Virus record (IMG/VR): IMGVR_UViG_3300030110_003038
Span: 1-59,633 of that record
Length of the DNA: 59,633 bases
Origin: a virus
Taxonomy: Duplodnaviria; Caudoviricetes
Strand: one strand, 5' to 3'
Under the pieces are notes generated by a model that saw only the letters and a list, made by a program, of their open reading frames with translations, was not told where the DNA came from and searched no databases. Positions 1,955-47,326 of the stretch are shown here, piece after piece. Both the position numbers and the translations under genes were made by a program. Each line of letters begins with the position of its first letter. Position 1 is the first letter of the stretch.

Positions 1955-2478
1955 CGGAAAATATTTTGGAGTATTCAGATATATAGAGGTTGAGGGTTAT
2001 TATTGCTTATACACACACCCCCCTTGATCAAGAAAGTGATTTTTTTTTGACTCATTAAAATGTTTTGAAAAATCCCATATAGATTTTTTCAGAATTCTAA
2101 ATTCAGTTCCCTATAGTAGTGGTTAGGTGGTACATCCTTCACACTATATTCCTTTGTTGATTAGTTATTGTAATGACTTCTAAGAAACTATCTCATACCT
2201 TCCCTTCTTAAATGGTAAACACAAAGAGAACAGACTAAGAGCCTTCCCTTAACCCCTCACCGAGTCAAAATATAACTAAACAAAACACACACAGAATCTC
2301 CATTTCATTTCATGATTGAATATGATTTGTGATTTAAATATTAAATAATAATCATTTGCAACAAGTATTAAAGAAAGTTTCTCCTCATATACATAAAGTA
2401 TTTGATAAATAATAATCAAATAATAATAGTTTATTCGACAAAGTTTATTATATTGCATAAGAATTAAAATTTAAAACT

Positions 2479-2577
2479 ATGTATGAATTAATCGAAACAT
2501 TTAAAATTGAGGTAATTGAATGCCCTCAAGAAATTAGTGAGTCATTCAAAGAATTAACTATAAATATACAACTATGA
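2479..2577 (+). CDS. Small hypothetical protein (32 aa)
   Basis: MYELIETFKIEVIECPQEISESFKELTINIQL; A-rich leader; ATGA overlap with the next ORF. Confidence 0.55.
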   Translation: MYELIETFKIEVIECPQEISESFKELTINIQL

Positions 2578-2768
2578 GTAAAGGAATAGATATGTTTAAA
2601 ATCTTAGCTAATGTTAAGAAAGAGCAAGGTGCTAATGACTTATATTATGAGTTAGAAGACACATTAGTTGGGTGGGGAAACTCCACTCAAGCTTACAACA
2701 ATTTTGTTGAAATATTGGCTAATTGGGATATGGATATCCAAGACTATACAAAAGGTGCAACACTATGA
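2574..2768 (+). CDS. Hypothetical protein (64 aa)
   Basis: ORF track; coupled by ATGA overlaps on both sides. Confidence 0.75.
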   Translation: MSKGIDMFKILANVKKEQGANDLYYELEDTLVGWGNSTQAYNNFVEILANWDMDIQDYTKGATL

Positions 2769-3124
2769 TAGATTATAAAAAAGAAGTGTTAAAAATGAAG
2801 AACATCATCCTCGATTTTGATGGGGATGATGGTACTTGGGATTTGTGCTTTGAGAAAAGAATCACAAATGACTCTGATAAAAGTTTCTCAAATGGTAAAT
2901 CTTATATGCCTATGTATACATACATAAAGTATACCGAAGGAGATTACATTATTGATGATGAAACTGAAATCTATGTGTATGAAGAGATGTTTCAACATAC
3001 AATTATTGATGCTCTTTATGACTCTACAAATAAGAAAATCTTCTTTGATGGTATGAAGAAAAATCAAGTAGATGAATTTGTAGATTGGAGAGATATTTAT
3101 AAACATCATTTGTTATCACAATGA
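2765..3124 (+). CDS. Hypothetical protein (acidic)
   Basis: ORF track 2723-3124; start revised to MIDYKK at 2765 (ATGA overlap). Confidence 0.75.
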   Translation: MIDYKKEVLKMKNIILDFDGDDGTWDLCFEKRITNDSDKSFSNGKSYMPMYTYIKYTEGDYIIDDETEIYVYEEMFQHTIIDALYDSTNKKIFFDGMKKNQVDEFVDWRDIYKHHLLSQ

Positions 3125-3282
3125 ATAAGATAGAAGTAAAATTTACCAAAAGACAATTAGAACTCATTCAATATGCTTGTGAATTGTCCCAAGATGGGAG
3201 AAGAGTAAAGGATGCAGAAGGAATGAAGGCAATTGTAATAAAACTCTATAAGTTAGGAATAATAAATAGAGGAATAGATTAA
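3121..3282 (+). CDS. Small hypothetical protein (53 aa)
   Basis: MNKIEVKFTKRQLELIQYACELSQDGRRVKDAEGMKAIVIKLYKLGIINRGID; ATGA overlap; stop codon lies in hammerhead 1 stem I. Confidence 0.7.
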   Translation: MNKIEVKFTKRQLELIQYACELSQDGRRVKDAEGMKAIVIKLYKLGIINRGID

Positions 3283-3331
3283 CTGAAGAGGATTCAATAT
3301 CCGAAACACCTCTTTATGAGGTGTCTTAATC
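3277..3331 (+). ncRNA. Type I hammerhead ribozyme 1
   Basis: Stem I GATTAA/TTAATC; core CTGAAGA; stem II GGAT-tcaat-ATCC; GAAA; stem III ACACCTC-tttat-GAGGTGT; GUC triplet, cleavage after C3325. Confidence 0.93.
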
Positions 3332-3345
3332 AAAATGAATTAACT

Positions 3346-3900
3346 ATGACTATTAAACAAAAAGTTTTTATATCTCTTAAGAAGAAGTATAAAACATCCT
3401 CTTTTAAATTAGAGGATATTAGAAGAGAAATTTGGGTTGCTCAAGGAAAGAATCCAAAGGAGTTTTATAATAAGCAAGGTTACTACATGGTAGCCATTAA
3501 TGATTGGGTAGGTGATAGACTTTTAAGCAGAAGACAAAAGAACATTTATAAACTATCTTTTGTTGGTTGCCTATATGCTAATAATCCAATCAAAACAAAT
3601 AGGATATTAAGAGCATTGGCAGACAGAAACAAAGCAAGGAGAAAAGCCATCAATAATCATGAGGACAATTTCAAACACTTAGTAGGAAGAAAGATTGTAA
3701 ATGTAAGGAGACTTACTCCTTATGAGTGTGTAAATTTTGGATGGAATAAATCACCTCTTGTATTAGAATTAGATGATAGAACTTGCTTAATTCCTCAGAC
3801 AGATGATGAAGGAAATGAAGGTGGGGCAATGTATCACTATGACTATGATTATAAACAAAGGAAAGGATACATCAAAGAAGAGGTAATATATACTATATAA
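3346..3900 (+). CDS. Hypothetical phage protein (basic N-terminus; C-terminal domain with a DDEGNxxG motif)
   Basis: ORF track 3316-3900; start revised to 3346 because 3316 lies inside the ribozyme and 3346 has the TAACT-ATG context seen in neighbouring genes. Confidence 0.8.
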   Translation: MTIKQKVFISLKKKYKTSSFKLEDIRREIWVAQGKNPKEFYNKQGYYMVAINDWVGDRLLSRRQKNIYKLSFVGCLYANNPIKTNRILRALADRNKARRKAINNHEDNFKHLVGRKIVNVRRLTPYECVNFGWNKSPLVLELDDRTCLIPQTDDEGNEGGAMYHYDYDYKQRKGYIKEEVIYTI

Positions 3901-3916
3901 CTAAAAATAAATAACT

Positions 3917-4045
3917 ATGGAAGAAACAATAAATATAAATATCTGCTACACTATTTGTAGTGAAAGTGGAGATAAAATAATTGACACAGAAATGATGTTA
4001 GAAGATTATTTTGATAAAGTAAATACATTAATTAACCAAAACTAA
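3917..4045 (+). CDS. Small hypothetical protein (42 aa)
   Basis: MEETININICYTICSESGDKIIDTEMMLEDYFDKVNTLINQN; AATAACT-ATG leader; fills the gap between neighbours. Confidence 0.65.
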   Translation: MEETININICYTICSESGDKIIDTEMMLEDYFDKVNTLINQN

Positions 4046-4051
4046 ATAACT

Positions 4052-4561
4052 ATGGGACAATATTTTAAAGTAATAAATAAAACAAAAAAAGAAGTTTTAA
4101 ACCCACATACCTTTGGCAATGGGCTAAAGTTATGGGAATTTGTGTCAGATGGTAATGGAGTTTTACAAGGACTCGGATTGTTATTGGCAGAAGGGCATGT
4201 AGAGTATAAGGATTTAATCCCTAAACCATCTACCATTATCGGTAGGTGGCATGGAGATAAAATAACTATTTTAGGTGACTATGCTCAAGACAAAGAAGGT
4301 AATAACATTTGGGATACTATGTTGGATTCTGAAGGAGAATTAAAGAAGTCATGGAAAGATATTTCTGTGGAGACTTATAAAACACTTCTTAAAGACACTT
4401 GGGTTGGTAATAGGAAAGCCGAACAGATAAAAAAGCATGGAACAAAGTTTATGATGAGTGATGAGAAAAAACTAATGTTAGAGTTATTTCCTAAAGAATG
4501 TACAGAAGGAGACTTGAGACAAAAGTATGACTTTGTAGAGAAAGAACAATCTGAAGAGTAA
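4052..4561 (+). CDS. Hypothetical phage protein (MGQYF...GLKLxE...GRWxGD...GDYA)
   Basis: ORF track; the last codons and stop overlap hammerhead 2. Confidence 0.85.
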   Translation: MGQYFKVINKTKKEVLNPHTFGNGLKLWEFVSDGNGVLQGLGLLLAEGHVEYKDLIPKPSTIIGRWHGDKITILGDYAQDKEGNNIWDTMLDSEGELKKSWKDISVETYKTLLKDTWVGNRKAEQIKKHGTKFMMSDEKKLMLELFPKECTEGDLRQKYDFVEKEQSEE

Positions 4562-4607
4562 AGGTTTAAACACCTACGAAACTCCCATGTATTTGGGAGT
4601 CATTGTT
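4545..4607 (+). ncRNA. Type I hammerhead ribozyme 2
   Basis: Stem I AACAAT/ATTGTT; core CTGAAGA; stem II GTA[AA]GGT-ttaaac-ACCTAC; GAAA; stem III ACTCCCA-tgtatt-TGGGAGT; GUC triplet, cleavage after C4601. Confidence 0.93.
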
Positions 4608-4625
4608 TAACTTAAATTAAATCAA

Positions 4626-4901
4626 ATGAATAAATTAATTAAAGAGATACAATTTCATCTTAAGGAACTCGACAAGGGTAACATAGATAAGGATGATTTT
4701 GTAAATGCTATTACTGAAATTTGTAGTGAAGAATCACCTCAAGCTGTGGAAGATCCTACTTGGGAATTTGACAATTCATCTCCAATTATCCACTTGGATG
4801 AGGATGGAAATGAACTCAAAGATTCTCCACTTAGTAATCCACTTGACAACCATTTTAAAACAATGGCAAGTATGGTCAGAAACTTAACTAAAAATAAATA
4901 A
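4626..4901 (+). CDS. Hypothetical protein (91 aa)
   Basis: ORF track; AATTAAATCAA leader. Confidence 0.75.
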   Translation: MNKLIKEIQFHLKELDKGNIDKDDFVNAITEICSEESPQAVEDPTWEFDNSSPIIHLDEDGNELKDSPLSNPLDNHFKTMASMVRNLTKNK

Positions 4902-4903
4902 CT

Positions 4904-5107
4904 ATGGAATTTAAAAAAGCAATTGTATTTACCGATACCAAAAAACTTACATTTTTTAATAAAAATAATTTTGATACTTATTGTTCTAAACACCAAGTAA
5001 ATGCCGATGATGTATTAATTAATGATATAGCTTTCTATGGATGGGATGAAATAGAAGTATTTTTTAAAGCAAAATCTGAAAATGAATTTTGGGATTATAT
5101 AACATAA
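4904..5107 (+). CDS. Hypothetical protein (67 aa)
   Basis: ORF track; tight operon packing. Confidence 0.75.
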   Translation: MEFKKAIVFTDTKKLTFFNKNNFDTYCSKHQVNADDVLINDIAFYGWDEIEVFFKAKSENEFWDYIT

Positions 5108-5117
5108 AGAAATAATT

Positions 5118-5759
5118 ATGAATGTATTAGAATTATTTAGTGGTAGCCGAAGTATCGGCAAAGAAGCAGAGAAGAGAGGGCATAAAGTCTTCTCTTCAGA
5201 CTTCGTTGATTTTCCAAACACAGACTATGTGTGTGACATCATGAAGTTTGATGTAAACAAGATTCCATTTAAAGTGGATATGTTGTGGGCATCACCACCT
5301 TGTGAGTCATTTTCTGTAGCATCCATAGGACATCATTGGGAGAAAGGTAAAGAGTTTATGCCTAAGACTAACAATGCAGTTAAAGGTATAAACATCTTAA
5401 TGAGAACAATGAAGATAATAGATATAATGTTACATAGAAATCCAAACATGATTTGGTACATAGAGAATCCAAGAGGTAAGATGAGAAAGTCTCCTCATTG
5501 GAATGAAATCCACCATGTTAGGCACACTTTAACCTATTGTCAATATGGTGATGATAGAATGAAGCCAACTGACATTTGGACAAACAATTTTAAGTGGACT
5601 CCCAAACCTATGTGCAAGAATGGTGATCCATGTCATGTGTCGGCACCAAGAGGAAGTCAAACTGGAACACAAGGTCGTGGAAGCTACTTTGATAGAAGTA
5701 AGATTCCTTCTGAATTGTGTAAAGAAATAGTAAGTATAACAAGTAAATTAAATAAATAA
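5118..5759 (+). CDS. Short DNA (cytosine-5) methyltransferase
   Basis: Motif I LELFSGSRS, catalytic WASPPC, motif VI IENP, YCQYG. Confidence 0.88.
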   Translation: MNVLELFSGSRSIGKEAEKRGHKVFSSDFVDFPNTDYVCDIMKFDVNKIPFKVDMLWASPPCESFSVASIGHHWEKGKEFMPKTNNAVKGINILMRTMKIIDIMLHRNPNMIWYIENPRGKMRKSPHWNEIHHVRHTLTYCQYGDDRMKPTDIWTNNFKWTPKPMCKNGDPCHVSAPRGSQTGTQGRGSYFDRSKIPSELCKEIVSITSKLNK

Positions 5760-5762
5760 ATT

Positions 5763-5957
5763 ATGGCAAATAGTAGTTATTGCAGATATGAAAATACTGC
5801 ACGAGATTTAAAAGATTGTGTAGAAGCAATTGATACTGATGGAATATCAGAAACTGCAAGTGATAGAGAAATTGAAGGGTTGAGAGATTTACTCATTCTT
5901 GCAAAAGAAGTGGTAGATAGAGAGGATGAAATTCTGGACTTGCTCGGTGATAGTTAA
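5763..5957 (+). CDS. Hypothetical protein (SYCRYENT motif)
   Basis: ORF track; operon packing. Confidence 0.8.
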   Translation: MANSSYCRYENTARDLKDCVEAIDTDGISETASDREIEGLRDLLILAKEVVDREDEILDLLGDS

Positions 5958-5987
5958 AAAAAATGTATAACTTAAATTAAATAAATT

Positions 5988-6227
5988 ATGAATAGAGAAG
6001 AAATATATAATCAAGTAATTCAAGAGTATTCTGAATTAATAGATAATGGAGAAACTTGGACCACACCAACTGGTGATAATATTCAAGATATAATAGGAAA
6101 CTTAGTTGACTTAGTTATGAAATATGGTCAAGAAGTGTATGATGTTGTTGACCTTGATGATTATACTTTAGAACAATTAATGGACTATGAATACTTAGAA
6201 AGTAAAATAAAAATTTTAATAAATTAA
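5988..6227 (+). CDS. Hypothetical protein (acidic, 79 aa)
   Basis: ORF track; A-rich leader. Confidence 0.75.
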   Translation: MNREEIYNQVIQEYSELIDNGETWTTPTGDNIQDIIGNLVDLVMKYGQEVYDVVDLDDYTLEQLMDYEYLESKIKILIN

Positions 6228-6238
6228 ATAAAAAAACT

Positions 6239-6547
6239 ATGGATTTAGAAAATAAACATACTGAAATTGAACATCTCAGAAAGCTATTGCAAGAAGAGAT
6301 GAAAGCAAAGGATGAAGCAATTAAAGAGTTGAATAATTATAAAAACTCTTATTTAACAATTGATAAAAAGTATTATCCAAAGGATGTAAAGTTTTATCAG
6401 AAAGCACAACTTTTCGAAATAAGAAAAGGTGATGACTTGCAAGATGATGACATATGGGATTCATATTGTGAAGACTTAGGGATAGATGAAGGACAAGAAT
6501 CCTTCTGTGTTTGTGTGATTGGGATAATGCATCAGTATGACTCCTAA
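6239..6547 (+). CDS. Hypothetical protein (102 aa)
   Basis: ORF track. Confidence 0.75.
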   Translation: MDLENKHTEIEHLRKLLQEEMKAKDEAIKELNNYKNSYLTIDKKYYPKDVKFYQKAQLFEIRKGDDLQDDDIWDSYCEDLGIDEGQESFCVCVIGIMHQYDS

Positions 6548-6701
6548 AGGAATTATGTTAGAATTATTATACCTTGTGTCTAAAATAATGAAGGCAAGGT
6601 GTGAACAAACATATGATGAAGGTGAAGCAGACAAATGGAGCAAAAACCATGATGCTATCATTAAGATTATAAACCAAATAGAAAATGGTGGTATTAAATA
6701 A
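6537..6701 (+). CDS. Small hypothetical protein (54 aa)
   Basis: MTPKGIMLELLYLVSKIMKARCEQTYDEGEADKWSKNHDAIIKIINQIENGGIK; overlaps the previous stop. Confidence 0.6.
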   Translation: MTPKGIMLELLYLVSKIMKARCEQTYDEGEADKWSKNHDAIIKIINQIENGGIK

Positions 6702-6725
6702 TTATATAACTTTAAAACAAAAACA

Positions 6726-6914
6726 ATGAGAAAAACTACATTAGATCAACTTGCAGAATGCAAATGGGAATTAGAAGAAGTAAAAACTGAAGCACAAGAG
6801 TATAAATTGTATAAAAAAATAATTACAAAATTATTTCCAAGACAACATGAAAGAATAGTTGATGAAATAAAAAAAAAGATAAAAGAAAGAAATAAAAAAT
6901 TAGGTATTAAGTAA
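6726..6914 (+). CDS. Hypothetical protein (62 aa)
   Basis: ORF track. Confidence 0.7.
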   Translation: MRKTTLDQLAECKWELEEVKTEAQEYKLYKKIITKLFPRQHERIVDEIKKKIKERNKKLGIK

Positions 6915-7049
6915 ATAAAGAACTACTTTTGGTGAAATATACAACAATTAATGAACAAGTATTATTCGCCAGATCCAGAAGAAGAAGAAGAAGAAGATGA
7001 TGTATTCTTGTTTATATAAAGAAACTAGTTAGTTAATTCAATGTTAATT

Positions 7050-7076
7050 CCCACCTTTCATACATGGGTGGGTTTT
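7050..7076 (+). terminator. Probable rho-independent terminator ending the small-ORF cluster
   Basis: CCCACC...GGTGGG hairpin followed by TTTT. Confidence 0.55.
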
Positions 7077-7103
7077 GACTCCTTCAAACAAAAGAAAAGA
7101 TAA

Positions 7104-7409
7104 ATGAAAAAAGATATATTTAATAAGTATAGTGAGGCTGTGGCTAAACAATTTCATCTGACATTAGATGAGATGTTTAGTAAAACTAAAAGACAAGACA
7201 TAGTAGAAGCAAGACAAATATTATATTACCTCTGTAAAGAAAGACCCATTAGATTTAGTTTCATCCAAAGATTTCTAGAAGAGAATGGGTATAAAGTAGG
7301 ACATTCAAGTATTATGCATGGTTACAACCAAGCTAAAAAAATGATTGAGGAAGATGTAGATTATAAAAACTTTATTGACAAAGCCACACAAGATGCCGAC
7401 ACTGATTGA
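7104..7409 (+). CDS. DnaA C-terminal-like helix-turn-helix protein
   Basis: SKTKRQDIVEARQILYYLCKE...HSSIMHG resembles the Bac_DnaA_C signature. Confidence 0.75.
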   Translation: MKKDIFNKYSEAVAKQFHLTLDEMFSKTKRQDIVEARQILYYLCKERPIRFSFIQRFLEENGYKVGHSSIMHGYNQAKKMIEEDVDYKNFIDKATQDADTD

Positions 7410-7803
7410 AATATTTAATGAAGCCAAGTCTGATCCAAGGGCAATTATTACTCAGTTTACCAATAGAGAGTCGGTAATAAACAAGGGGTGTAAAATTCAA
7501 AAGTTTACTGATAGAATAGAAATACTTAATATGGGTAAGGGTGGTGATTACTTTAAATTATGCACAGATGAAGAGTATGATTTTTTCTATCGATTTGGAT
7601 GGAAAGTAGGGGTAATTCAATTAGCTATTAGTAATTGCCAACATAAATTAAATATTATTAAAGAAAGAATTAAGAAAGAAGTAAACACTAGAAAGAATGA
7701 TAAGCATATTCAAAACCTTAAGAACAGAAGAGAGGCTATCATGGTGAAGTTTACTATATATAAAAGAAAATTAAATCAAGTTAAATCAAAATCACAATTA
7801 TGA
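7393..7803 (+). CDS. Hypothetical protein with a basic coiled-coil C-terminus
   Basis: ORF track 7375-7803; ATG start at MPTLIE. Confidence 0.75.
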   Translation: MPTLIEIFNEAKSDPRAIITQFTNRESVINKGCKIQKFTDRIEILNMGKGGDYFKLCTDEEYDFFYRFGWKVGVIQLAISNCQHKLNIIKERIKKEVNTRKNDKHIQNLKNRREAIMVKFTIYKRKLNQVKSKSQL

Positions 7804-8345
7804 ATAAACTAAAATCAATTAAAATCAAAGGAAAGGATTATGTTGAGGTTCATGAAAGACTTAAGTATTTCAGAGCCACATATCCTAAGTATTCTCTCAC
7901 TACTGAAGTAATAGAGAAAACAGAAGCATCTATATTAGTTATGGCTATTATTAAAGATGATAATGATAGGATCTTGGCAACTGGTTTAGCCGAAGAGTCT
8001 AAAAATTCTACATTTATAAACAAAACAAGTTATGTAGAAAATGCCGAAACTTCAGCTTGGGGTAGAGCATTAGGTAATTTAGGAATAGGATTAGACACCT
8101 CAGTAGCAAGTGCCGATGAGGTAGTTAATGCAATAGCTAATCAAAATAAACCTGTTAAGGTTGCTCAAGAAACTAAGAAGGAAGGGAAGTGGACATTAGA
8201 GGTGAAGGATGAAAAGTGGGATGTGGTCCTACAATGGATAGCTAAAAACAAGAAAAAGGGATTAGCTAAACTAATAGAAGAGTTAGAAAAAGACTTATAT
8301 ATCATCGGTGATGATGTGAAGGTAGAACTAAAAAAACATGTATAG
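7800..8345 (+). CDS. Rad52/Sak-like single-strand annealing protein
   Basis: IKGKDYVEVHERL...ENAETSAWGRALGNLGIG; adjacent to exonuclease and SSB. Confidence 0.65.
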   Translation: MNKLKSIKIKGKDYVEVHERLKYFRATYPKYSLTTEVIEKTEASILVMAIIKDDNDRILATGLAEESKNSTFINKTSYVENAETSAWGRALGNLGIGLDTSVASADEVVNAIANQNKPVKVAQETKKEGKWTLEVKDEKWDVVLQWIAKNKKKGLAKLIEELEKDLYIIGDDVKVELKKHV

Positions 8346-9803: not shown

Positions 9804-9867
9804 AATAGAGTAAAATCTATTTATATAGAAGTAAAAATTAAATTTAATTAAATTAAATCGACATAAA

Positions 9868-12279
9868 ATGGACATTACTATCTTTAAAGATATTAAAGAA
9901 ACGGCACAACCATTCTATAGAAAAGTGGATGTTATCTTAAAAAGAATTCAAGAAGGGTCCTCTAAAGATTTAGTCAAAAGGATTAGAGCTGAAAAAGACA
10001 AAGAAAAAAGAAACCTTCTTAAACAACAATTGCCAGCCATTTGTTTTAGTGGCACCTTTAATAAAAGAAACGATACATCCCTACAAGCACATAGTGGATT
10101 AATATGCTTAGACTTTGATGGCTATAAAACCAACAAAGATATGCTTCAAGAAAAAGAGAGGTTAAGTAAGAATAAATATATCTTTGCATTGTTTATTTCT
10201 CCAAGTGGAAAGGGATTAAAAGCAGTAGTAAAAATTCCTAAAGAACCTGACAATCATAAAAATTATTTTTTAAGTCTACAACATTACTTAAACTCTGAGT
10301 ATTTTGATAAGACATGTAAGAATATTTCTAGAGTATGTTATGAGTCTTATGATCCTCTTATACATATTAACACCACATCAAGTACTTGGGATAAAATAGT
10401 AGAGCAAGAATATACTGAAGTTATTAAACATGTAGATATTCCCACTATACCAGTTACTGATGAAAATAAAATTGTAGACATCCTTACTAAATGGTGGCTT
10501 AAAAAGTACCCAATGGTAGAAGGACAAAGAAACCAAAACATATACATATTGGCGGCTGCTTTTAATGATTTTGGTGTAAATCAAACCTTGGCAGAGTATG
10601 TTATGAATAACTTTGCTAGTAAAAATTTTACTGCTACTGAGATTAAAAGAACAATTACTTCTGCTTATGCCCAGGTACAAAACTTTGGTACAAAATATTA
10701 TGAAGATGAAGATAAAGTAAATTCAGTCAGAGAAAAATTAAAAAGAGGTGTCTCAAAAAAAGAAATCCGATCCCAGCTTGAAGAGTCTGATGTTGAGGTC
10801 GGAACAATAGAAAATGTATTAGTCAGACTCGAAGATGAACAGTCTAATAGTAAGTTTTGGACTAAAAATGACAAAGGAGTAATAAAGATAGTACACATAT
10901 CCTTTAAAAGTTTTCTAGAAGAGAATGGGTTCTATAAGTTTAATCCAGAAGGAAGCAGAAGTTATGTGTTTGTAAGGGTAACTAACAACCTTATTGATCA
11001 CACCTCTGAAAAAGAAATTAAAGATTTTATTTTAAACTATCTGTTAGAGATAGATGACATTACTGTATACAATTACTTTGCAGAACACACTAGGTATTTT
11101 AGAGAAGAGTTTTTAACTCTTTTATCTTCAATAGATGTATATTTTATAGAAGACACTAAAGACACTGCATACTTATATTATAAGTCAGGTGCAGTGAAAG
11201 TAACAAAAAACACTGTGACCCCTATTGATTACCTAGATTTAGGTGGTTATGTTTGGAAGGACCATGTAATAGACAGAACATTTGTAATGTGTGAGTCTAA
11301 TGAGTGTGATTATAAATCATTTATATCTAACATTTGTGGTAATGATGAGAGTAGAATAGAATCTATGAGATCTACAATAGGATATTTGCTTCATGCTTGG
11401 AAAAATTTATCCTATAGCCCCGCCACAATACTTAATGATGAGCAGATTTCTGATTCTCCAGAAGGTGGAACTGGTAAAGGTTTGTTTATTAATGCTTTGT
11501 CTCACATGAAGAAGGTTGTGGTGATAGATGGAAAATCTTTTAATTTTGAGAAATCCTTTGCATATCAACTTGTAAGTGCAGATACTCAGATCCTATGCTT
11601 TGATGATGTAAGTAAGCATTTTAACTTTGAAAGACTTTTTTCTGTAGTTACTGAGGGTTTAACCTTAGAAAAGAAAAACAAAGATGCAATAAAGATACCT
11701 TTTTCTAAATCTCCTAAAGTAGCAATTACTACTAACTATGCTATAAGAGGTAAAGGCTCATCTTTTGAGAGGAGAAAGTGGGAGTTGGAGTTGGCACAGT
11801 TTTATACTAGGGAATATACTCCATTAAAAGAATTTGGTAAATTAATGTTTGGTGAATGGAATGATGATGAGTGGTGTTCATTTGACAACTTTATGATTGA
11901 GTGCTTACAGTTATATTTGAAGTCTGGATTAGTTAAGAGTGAATTTGTTAACTTGAAGATTAGAAGACTCTCGGCTGAGACATGCCATGAGTTTATAGAA
12001 TGGTGTGGAATATTAGATGATATGCCACCAAATAAAATGTTAGCAACTAATACAAAAATATTTAAACAAGACTTGTACTTTGATTTTATTGAAGACAACC
12101 CTGACTTTGCACCTAAGTCAAAAATGACAGTGTCTAGGACAAGGTTCTATAAATGGTTGACTGCTTATAATCAATTTAAATATAAGTGTGATCCTGAAGA
12201 AGGAAGAGATTCAGGAGGAAGATGGATTGTGTTTAGAAATGTACAAGACTTAGAAGAAAATGGTAAAATAGATTTTTAG
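9868..12279 (+). CDS. Primase-helicase (VirE-N/BT4734-like primase domain, PriCT-like domain, P-loop helicase)
   Basis: LKQQLPAICFSG, SGLICLDFD, FISPSGKGLK, GQRNQ, Walker A EGGTGKG, Walker B LCFDD, ITTN. Confidence 0.85.
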   Translation: MDITIFKDIKETAQPFYRKVDVILKRIQEGSSKDLVKRIRAEKDKEKRNLLKQQLPAICFSGTFNKRNDTSLQAHSGLICLDFDGYKTNKDMLQEKERLSKNKYIFALFISPSGKGLKAVVKIPKEPDNHKNYFLSLQHYLNSEYFDKTCKNISRVCYESYDPLIHINTTSSTWDKIVEQEYTEVIKHVDIPTIPVTDENKIVDILTKWWLKKYPMVEGQRNQNIYILAAAFNDFGVNQTLAEYVMNNFASKNFTATEIKRTITSAYAQVQNFGTKYYEDEDKVNSVREKLKRGVSKKEIRSQLEESDVEVGTIENVLVRLEDEQSNSKFWTKNDKGVIKIVHISFKSFLEENGFYKFNPEGSRSYVFVRVTNNLIDHTSEKEIKDFILNYLLEIDDITVYNYFAEHTRYFREEFLTLLSSIDVYFIEDTKDTAYLYYKSGAVKVTKNTVTPIDYLDLGGYVWKDHVIDRTFVMCESNECDYKSFISNICGNDESRIESMRSTIGYLLHAWKNLSYSPATILNDEQISDSPEGGTGKGLFINALSHMKKVVVIDGKSFNFEKSFAYQLVSADTQILCFDDVSKHFNFERLFSVVTEGLTLEKKNKDAIKIPFSKSPKVAITTNYAIRGKGSSFERRKWELELAQFYTREYTPLKEFGKLMFGEWNDDEWCSFDNFMIECLQLYLKSGLVKSEFVNLKIRRLSAETCHEFIEWCGILDDMPPNKMLATNTKIFKQDLYFDFIEDNPDFAPKSKMTVSRTRFYKWLTAYNQFKYKCDPEEGRDSGGRWIVFRNVQDLEENGKIDF

Positions 12280-37920: not shown

Positions 37921-37951
37921 TGTATTTAATTTAATTTAATTTAATTTAAGT

Positions 37952-47277: not shown

Positions 47278-47326
47278 TGTATTTAATTTAATTTAAGTTA
47301 TAAAAAACAAATATAATAAAATATTA

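Follow-up and report, generated by a model that had tools for sequence, protein, structure and literature searches.

The virus record IMGVR_UViG_3300030110_003038 is a DNA of 59,633 bases, which we analysed in its entirety and refer to as the window. On its + strand, at positions 3277-3331, it carries a hammerhead motif, hereafter HH1, which sits at the junction between one open reading frame (ORF) and the next. We consider it likely, with a probability of about 0.7, that HH1 is a functional type I hammerhead ribozyme that would cleave the early + strand transcript between two cistrons. A second hammerhead, HH2, is found at 4545-4607 of the same strand.

HH1 is a complete hammerhead between a stop and a start codon

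HH1 has the topology of a type I hammerhead, in which stem I (6 base pairs, bp) is open and stems II (4 bp) and III (7 bp) are closed by loops. The 5' strand of stem I (GATTAA, 3277-3282) pairs with TTAATC at 3326-3331 and leads into the core segment CUGAAGA (C3 to A9, 3283-3289). Stem II (GGAU/AUCC, 3290-3302) is capped by loop II (UCAAU, 3294-3298), the core nucleotides G12, A13 and A14 follow at 3303-3305, and stem III with its loop UUUAU spans 3306-3324, a segment that includes an in-frame ATG at 3316. By the hammerhead consensus, 3325 is C17, after which the RNA is predicted to be cut (3325|3326). The 3' strand of stem I (UUAAUC, 3326-3331) would accordingly form the first six nucleotides (nt) of the 3' product, followed by the remainder of an A/U-rich leader (3332-3345) that is predicted to be unstructured. 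Every core position fits the consensus, including a nucleotide other than G at the cleavage site (C3325), and the core is framed by the pairs G3290-C3302 (10.1-11.1), A3306-U3324 (15.1-16.1, the first pair of stem III) and U3326-A3282 (1.1-2.1). Stem I is flanked by A3276 (position 2.7) and A3332 (position 1.7), both conserved in the subclass described below. When 3270-3350 is folded in silico, the minimum-energy structure (-16 kcal/mol) is that of the hammerhead.

The upstream ORF (3121-3282, + strand, 53 residues, no family match) ends with the TAA at 3280-3282, which forms the last three nucleotides of the stem I 5' strand. The downstream ORF (3346-3900, + strand, 184 residues) has no family match either. 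An earlier note on this DNA had described a hammerhead placed exactly between a stop codon and the next start, with the TAA inside stem I and a 20-nt A/T-rich leader left before ATG 3346. Our analysis bears this out: the full core and the three helices are present, an independent covariance model matches HH1 with 50.5 bits (see below), and a cut at 3325|3326 leaves 3326-3345, which contains only 3 G/C. ATG 3346 is a likelier start than the in-frame ATG 3316 within stem III, because the downstream ortholog of the closest relative (locus L005, primase 94% identical), encoded at 2396-3034 and beginning MKIKQQIF, aligns with MTIKQKVF from ATG 3346 of the window.

The window contains two hammerheads

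A descriptor scan of the window returned 2 matches compared to a mean of 0.085 per sequence in 200 Markov shuffles; at least one match was found in 16 of these shuffles and at least two in a single one. We then searched the window, with filters off, using a leave-out covariance model (R2) built from nine copies that all stem from other contigs. R2 matched HH1 with 50.5 bits (E = 1.8e-12) and HH2 with 35.3 bits, and the best match outside the hammerheads reached 12.1 bits. Judging from this drop in score, the window contains exactly two hammerheads, both on the + strand.

Compensatory changes preserve the core and all three helices

For comparison, 80 loci were fetched as relatives through the primase and searched with a covariance model (R1). 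At E<0.01, 21 of the 80 contained at least one match, and all 38 matches at E≤1, including both in the window, lay on the primase-sense strand. In an alignment of 26 sequences, 96.5% of the cells were paired and compensatory changes occurred in 15 of 17 pairs (6/6 in stem I and 3/4 in stem II). The two pairs without such a change were G10.1-C11.1, which is G-C in 25 of the 26 sequences, and A15.1-U16.1, which is the same in all 26. As this alignment was fitted to the model, it favours structure, a concern that is answered in part by controls with slid partners, in which only 29-39% of the cells were paired; none of 500 shuffles reached the observed covariation score. As compensatory changes preserve the core and the helices alike, we conclude that selection acts on ribozyme activity itself.

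The motif is widespread. A pattern for the stem II variant of HH1 was found in at least 119 stretches of viral contigs, with up to 6 matches per locus. A relaxed descriptor, applied to 203 sequences (202 fetched loci and the window), gave 292 matches in 140 of them, 254 of which were non-redundant, with up to 12 per locus. Stem I, stem II and loop II of HH1 recur identically in contigs L098, L121 and L172. In locus L125, six pattern matches lie within 5 kb (3171-8118). Some leaders carry GGAGG-like Shine-Dalgarno motifs, and the subclass is therefore not confined to phages of Bacteroidota. Furthermore, 44 of the 254 copies have an extra U between A9 and the first stem II pair (CTGANGA-T-GGAT...), for example L068:2552-2614 and L082:3761-3813.

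Conserved flanks fit a possible tertiary contact between loop II and stem I

In a set of 197 unique copies, stem I is preceded by A in 99% and followed by A in 94%, and its outer pair is G-C in about 95%; at the nine positions upstream of the preceding A, the share of A is 38-61%. Only 4 of 209 copies could extend stem I by a seventh pair. Loop II follows the pattern U-N-A-N-U: in 80 copies in which the search pattern left it unconstrained, the three defined positions were U in 77, A in 73 and U in 65. HH1 carries all of these subclass features (A3276, G3277-C3331, A3332 and loop UCAAU). The constant geometry and the conserved unpaired bases fit a putative non-Watson-Crick tertiary contact between loop II and the end of the 6-bp stem I, on which fast cleavage would probably depend. 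Non-Watson-Crick contacts between loops and flanks are known from other natural hammerheads.

Pairing between loop II and the leader is at chance level

The earlier note had suggested another partner for loop II: the TCA at 3294-3296 is complementary to a TGA at 3336-3338 in the leader, which could form an activating pseudoknot. Ribosomes terminating at TAA 3280-3282 would then gate folding and couple cleavage to translation of the upstream ORF. The 3-bp complementarity is indeed present in HH1, but as an activating pseudoknot it is unsupported, being at chance level and lacking a signal in the family. When the leader of HH1 is shuffled 10,000 times, three or more Watson-Crick pairs with loop II form in 76% of the shuffles. 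In 21 relatives, loop and leader share a mean complementarity of 3.33 bp versus 3.45 bp after permutation of the loops, 92% of the permutations being at least as high as the observed mean; in 209 non-redundant copies, the best match averages 3.129 bp versus 3.128 ± 0.045 bp (50% reach it).

Individual copies point in the same direction. Among 39 copies with a UCAAU loop, no leader contains 4 or 5 nt complementary to the loop, and constant leaders occur with changing loops, one being paired with both UCAAU and UUAAU and another with both UAAAU and UGAAU. Contigs L098, L121 and L172 share stems I and II and loop II with HH1, yet their leaders have no UGA at the corresponding place; in L172 there is none in the 30 nt after stem I. 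Two observations speak for pairing. A leader UGA is found in 8 of 51 copies with a UCA loop versus 9 of 158 others (Fisher p = 0.036, a test that ignores relatedness among copies), but its positions are scattered (5, 6, 7, 10, 12, 13, 28 and 28). The other observation is L202 at 12424 (- strand), with loop UCAGU and an ACUGA at leader positions 4-8 that would give 5 bp in a leader resembling that of HH1. Pairing of loop II with the 5' flank is marginal (3.29 observed versus 3.21 ± 0.047; 3.7% of permutations reach it, with relatedness ignored).

In the sections of PMC3088659 used here, about 40% of hammerheads are stated to employ a pseudoknot between stems I and II. The pseudoknot-stabilised hammerheads described there have pseudoknots of 4-6 bp, in which mutation and compensation alter the rate, and the loop of one stem pairs with the tail beyond the other, much as envisaged for HH1. 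Whereas such hammerheads are recognised by a contact of about 4 bp or more that is conserved or covaries, HH1 offers 3 bp at chance level and without covariation. As for the gating ribosome, most copies do have a stop that overlaps the ribozyme's 5' half, which a terminating ribosome would cover transiently, but the register of the stop varies from -11 to +19, which fits tight packing of genes and not a fixed geometry between ribosome and ribozyme. We thus regard pseudoknot activation with ribosome gating as improbable for HH1; the pseudoknot, unsupported for the family, may still exist in a narrow lineage.

Hammerheads are placed within a narrow distance of the next start codon

The family is regular in its position relative to the downstream gene. 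In 32 of 32 model matches the next ATG follows the cleavage site by 20-37 nt. With the relaxed descriptor, an ORF starts within 150 nt in 247 of the 254 non-redundant copies; their leaders have a median length of 24 nt and measure 15-39 nt in 219 of these 247. In 23 of 27 copies, the nearest upstream ORF terminates between -4 and +19, counted from the first position of the hammerhead. In a larger set of 238, the last base of the stop is most often at +5 (48 copies), the register of HH1 at the end of the stem I 5' strand, followed by +9 (the UGA of the core, 31), 0 (25), -1 (21) and +19 (a TAA in loop II, 17). As judged from these registers, upstream ORFs extend into the ribozyme and terminate at the stop triplet that its conserved sequence happens to provide in their frame. 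This layout is found throughout the family and is therefore not special to HH1. The constraint on strand and on the distance to the ATG points to a role in the mRNA.

From these data we infer that HH1 cleaves in vivo and thereby may affect the stability or translation of the mRNA. The early + strand genes are presumably co-transcribed, and HH1 would fold within their transcript. Cuts by HH1 at 3325|3326 and by HH2 at 4601|4602 would excise a piece of 1276 nt (1.28 kb). Because HH1 is of type I, nearly all of the ribozyme would remain on the upstream RNA, which would retain its stop codon and terminate in a folded structure bearing a 2',3'-cyclic phosphate. The RNA downstream of the cut would begin with a 5'-OH and the six former stem I bases and would reach ATG 3346 through the unstructured A/U-rich 20-nt leader. 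Hammerhead chemistry leaves a 5'-OH on the downstream product, as the earlier note had expected, and a 2',3'-cyclic phosphate on the upstream one. In bacterial mRNA decay, both types of end should slow end-dependent degradation.

A bolder extension, which we put forward as speculation, is that the 5'-OH at the upstream edge of the ribosome-binding region itself boosts initiation or stability in hosts that do not use Shine-Dalgarno motifs. Hammerhead and leader of ~20-24 nt would then constitute a portable start-of-gene cassette. Just as tentatively, the narrow ATG distance, the A-flanked 6-bp stem I and the stops in different frames (within the first 20 nt and the two bases before) might be parts of the cassette's design.

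Start regions of the window share an enriched motif, TTAAATTAAAT, with 34 matches at ≤1 mismatch versus 16.5 expected, a number reached by none of 100 shuffles. Most matches lie on the coding strand a short distance before a start codon, for example at 4612-4622, 5972-5982 and 9848-9858 (+ strand) and at 37924-37949 (overlapping matches every 5 nt) and 47281-47296 (- strand); TTAAATTAAAT is probably the translation-initiation motif of this phage. The leaders of HH2 and of copies in relatives resemble TTAAATTAAAT; the HH1 leader has no match to it at ≤1 mismatch. The HH1 leader also contains a mini-ORF (ATG-AAT-TAA, 3335-3343) that ends 2 nt before ATG 3346, and the leaders of L067 and L068 hold a similar ATG-TTA-TGA that overlaps the real start.

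Evidence against an active ribozyme and alternative explanations

Several observations weigh against a functional, intercistronic HH1. The Rfam scan of the window gave no match to HH1 at the gathering score of the hammerhead family (RF00163, 34 bits), and relaxing the search to E≤10 over 3150-3450 gave no hammerhead match. It was this silence that led us to build our own covariance model. Stem I, with 5 A-U pairs among its 6, is absent from both the minimum-energy and the centroid fold of a 231-nt context, the latter retaining stems II and III. The leader and start codon of HH1 are predicted to be unpaired before as well as after cleavage. The start codon would thus be accessible without a cut, unmasking it cannot be the mechanism, and any benefit of cleavage is hypothetical. 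In the early region of the window only 2 intergenic junctions carry a hammerhead. The public runs that contain the DNA of this region are marine and seawater metagenomes, and none of those listed is recorded as RNA.

A further such point comes from Flavobacterium phages. A descriptor scan of the uncultured podovirus MW202828.1 and the elemo phages gave nothing convincing; the covariance model later detected a hammerhead-like element of 32.6 bits in vB_FspP_elemoF_6-3D and elemoE_10-3D (L003/L004, 11962-12019), between gp65 and gp67. Its stem II contains two adjacent A.C mismatches, and some copies may therefore be inactive. The element is covered by an annotated 'hypothetical protein' on the opposite strand (11927-12034), which may be spurious.

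Taken at face value, the missing Rfam match, the A/U-rich stem I, a fold z-score of only -1.84 and the broken stem II of the elemo copy would be compatible with HH1 being a non-cleaving motif, either decayed or arisen by chance. We consider this very improbable in view of the full core consensus, the 50.5 bits obtained with an independent model and the subclass features at its periphery (A at -1, G-C outer pair, A at +1 and the U-N-A-N-U loop), and since stem I, stem II and loop II are identical in L098, L121 and L172. One family member, L026:709-758, does pass the RF00163 gathering score (35.9 versus 34 bits), which ties the group to the curated family. A 13-bit RF00163 site at 7984-8050 was rejected, as it lies inside an ORF and has CCGA in place of CUGA.

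The distribution of the elements raises another question, namely whether hammerhead and short leader (~55-70 nt shared) are mainly a mobile, recombination-prone or selfish module at gene boundaries, with incidental effects on expression. HH1 is missing at the orthologous junction of its closest relative: the L005 ortholog at 2396-3034 has no hammerhead in front and its start overlaps the previous stop, from which it follows that the element is dispensable at this junction. The genes around the copies are mostly unrelated, 55 flanking ORFs forming 40 similarity clusters with 29 singletons, and five loci keep a block from stem I to ATAAGATACCAATT, with co-varying stems II and III, between unrelated flanks (see below). 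Metagenome DNA contigs stop or diverge at the element: 3280, 3307 and 3312 are loose contig ends, and another contig follows the window over 3000-3356 before diverging. Breaks of this kind are, however, an effect of assembly at repeats and do not prove recombination. The abundance of the motif, with at least 119 stretches of viral sequence for a single stem II variant and as many as 12 descriptor matches per locus, would also fit a mobile module, as would a direct repeat, ATTAACT, at 3278-3284 (the junction of stem I and core) and 3339-3345 (in the leader). A downstream copy of a stem I strand is not general in the family, with 3.75 observed versus 3.70 permuted and 39% of permutations reaching the observed value.

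From the absence in L005, the unrelated flanks, the five-locus block and the contig breaks we conclude that the elements are often gained, lost or exchanged, which also tempers our reading of HH1, and a modular or selfish component is plausible. As the principal explanation we find mobility unlikely, since compensatory changes that preserve core and helices place activity under selection, and since strand (38/38) and ATG distance (219/247 within 15-39 nt) are constrained. Self-cleavage of the early transcript remains our preferred reading of HH1.

HH2 and other lineages of the family

HH2 is likewise a type I hammerhead on the + strand (4545-4607; descriptor 4544-4608), with C17 at 4601. The stop TAA at 4559-4561 of ORF 4052-4561 lies within its stem II, and ATG 4626 follows the cleavage site by 24 nt. 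It belongs to a different subclass, with a long, bulged stem II and without the A/A flanks, and has an ortholog at L005:4721-4783 with compensatory changes in stem III. HH1 and HH2 bracket the 1276-nt segment 3326-4601, which contains ORFs 3346-3900 and 4052-4561 and a 42-codon frame at 3917-4045. A reading of the elements as transcription terminators was rejected: stem III of HH2 scores as terminator-like and stem III of HH1 does not.

The five-locus block mentioned above defines a lineage named after its stem I (GATACT/AGTATC), found at L080:440-520, L052:477-560, L084:3419-3500, L053:2176-2256 and L082:3761-3841. All five loci have the same stem I, core and 14 nt after the ribozyme (ATAAGATACCAATT), with co-varying stems II and III and unrelated flanking genes. 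The 3' product of this lineage is predicted to form a 5'-terminal hairpin that uses the 3' strand of stem I (-3.9 kcal/mol). A corresponding post-cleavage hairpin of HH1, formed by the stem I 3' strand and a downstream copy of the 5' strand, was discarded, with a predicted energy of 0.0 kcal/mol and no family-wide signal. In L057:2033-2044 and L076:341-352, a 4-bp hairpin follows directly 3' of stem I (GGGAATAGTCCC versus GGCAATAGTGCC) with one compensatory pair change, which recalls the hairpin added in RiboJ.

The phage, its genes and its host

The window represents the whole virus record, with an estimated completeness of 96%. Structural genes (portal, large terminase and tail fibres) occupy the - strand; on the + strand, a group of small ORFs precedes a primase-like gene, methyltransferases and a helicase. 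The primase-like protein has 803 residues and is 66.8% identical to its counterpart in MW202828.1; its first 299 residues share 40.8% identity with the primase/helicase of Flavobacterium phages of the genus Elemovirus. The window would thus derive from an uncultured marine phage that resembles Flavobacterium podophages. Based on the primase relatives, the marine and seawater origin of the DNA and the A/T-rich start regions without a Shine-Dalgarno motif, we infer a host among the marine Flavobacteriia.

Little is found for the neighbouring genes. None of the five ORFs around HH1 and HH2 has a family in PHROGs or Pfam, a peptide-pattern search of viral contigs with the protein of ORF 3346-3900 gave no close relatives, and a nucleotide search of GenBank phages with window positions 2500-6500 matched only a methyltransferase fragment. 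A DNA contig from another study differs by 3186 G>A and 3210 G>A, both at synonymous third positions of ORF 3121-3282; among the matches listed, the DNA contigs of four runs held no usable variation within 3277-3345. About 50 nt into the downstream ORF, a hairpin at 3393-3420 has 7 bp in the + strand RNA fold; on the - strand it has 10 pairs counting G-T, looks terminator-like and gives a chance-level match to an Rfam miRNA.

Comparison with known hammerheads and implications

HH1 adds nothing new in kind but belongs to the known type I hammerheads of phages. With the bacterial and phage members of RF00163 (clan CL00010), as far as they are covered in the sections of PMC3088659 used here, it shares the core, the three-helix junction and the open stem I. 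The setting is also the same, as the phage copies presented there flank single genes or short blocks. HH1 differs from RF00163 in its sub-threshold score, the strict 6-bp A-flanked stem I with a G-C outer pair, the 4-bp stem II and the U-N-A-N-U loop. This subclass may already be listed in the supplements of PMC3088659 (Dataset S1, Figures S4 and S5). A literature search for natural hammerheads and Flavobacterium, judged by title and abstract, returned nothing on the subject.

In excerpts of the same work, clustered hammerheads are reported to flank genes in prophages, and processing of long phage transcripts was proposed (Perreault et al. 2011, PMC3088659); a passage of a 2019 review still called the purpose of such hammerheads undefined (PMC6765202). 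A comparable position is taken by HHphage of the haloviruses HF1 and HF2, which PMC3088659 places in the early region, 13 nt upstream of a start codon; a transcript 5' end was mapped there to no more than 3 nt from the point of cleavage. The core of HHphage bears an atypical insertion, the host is archaeal and the ribozyme lies at the front of the transcript, whereas HH1 has a consensus core and lies between two ORFs.

Functionally, HH1 can be likened to the insulators RiboJ and VtmoJ, in which, according to parts of PMC6993053, a self-cleaving ribozyme upstream of the ribosome-binding region strips off the upstream RNA context; the same source portions describe engineered polycistronic designs that frame each gene with a ribozyme. 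As in RiboJ, some relatives of HH1 have a hairpin right after the ribozyme, whereas none is predicted for the 3' product of HH1 (0.0 kcal/mol). Moreover, RiboJ is engineered. In RNA mycoviruses, type I hammerheads in the 5' untranslated region lie directly upstream of the ORF, and excerpts of PMC13725137 report that self-cleavage is essential for translation initiation. Those systems are eukaryotic and cap-independent and reside in RNA genomes, unlike the DNA phage of HH1, and DNA phage matches were set aside there as already described. If the start-of-gene cassette were real, it would be the phage counterpart of this ribozyme-dependent initiation.

The HH1 locus gives access to an extensive family of regular layout, with hundreds of type I hammerheads in the genomes of uncultured viruses, in sense orientation to the genes and with a start codon about 24 nt downstream, most of which are missed at Rfam thresholds. 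The idea of a pseudoknot with the leader can be dropped. In its place, the regularity of the family leads to the hypotheses that cleavage would define where the downstream message begins and leave the upstream message with a structured 3' end, and that the ribozymes would make a specific tertiary contact.

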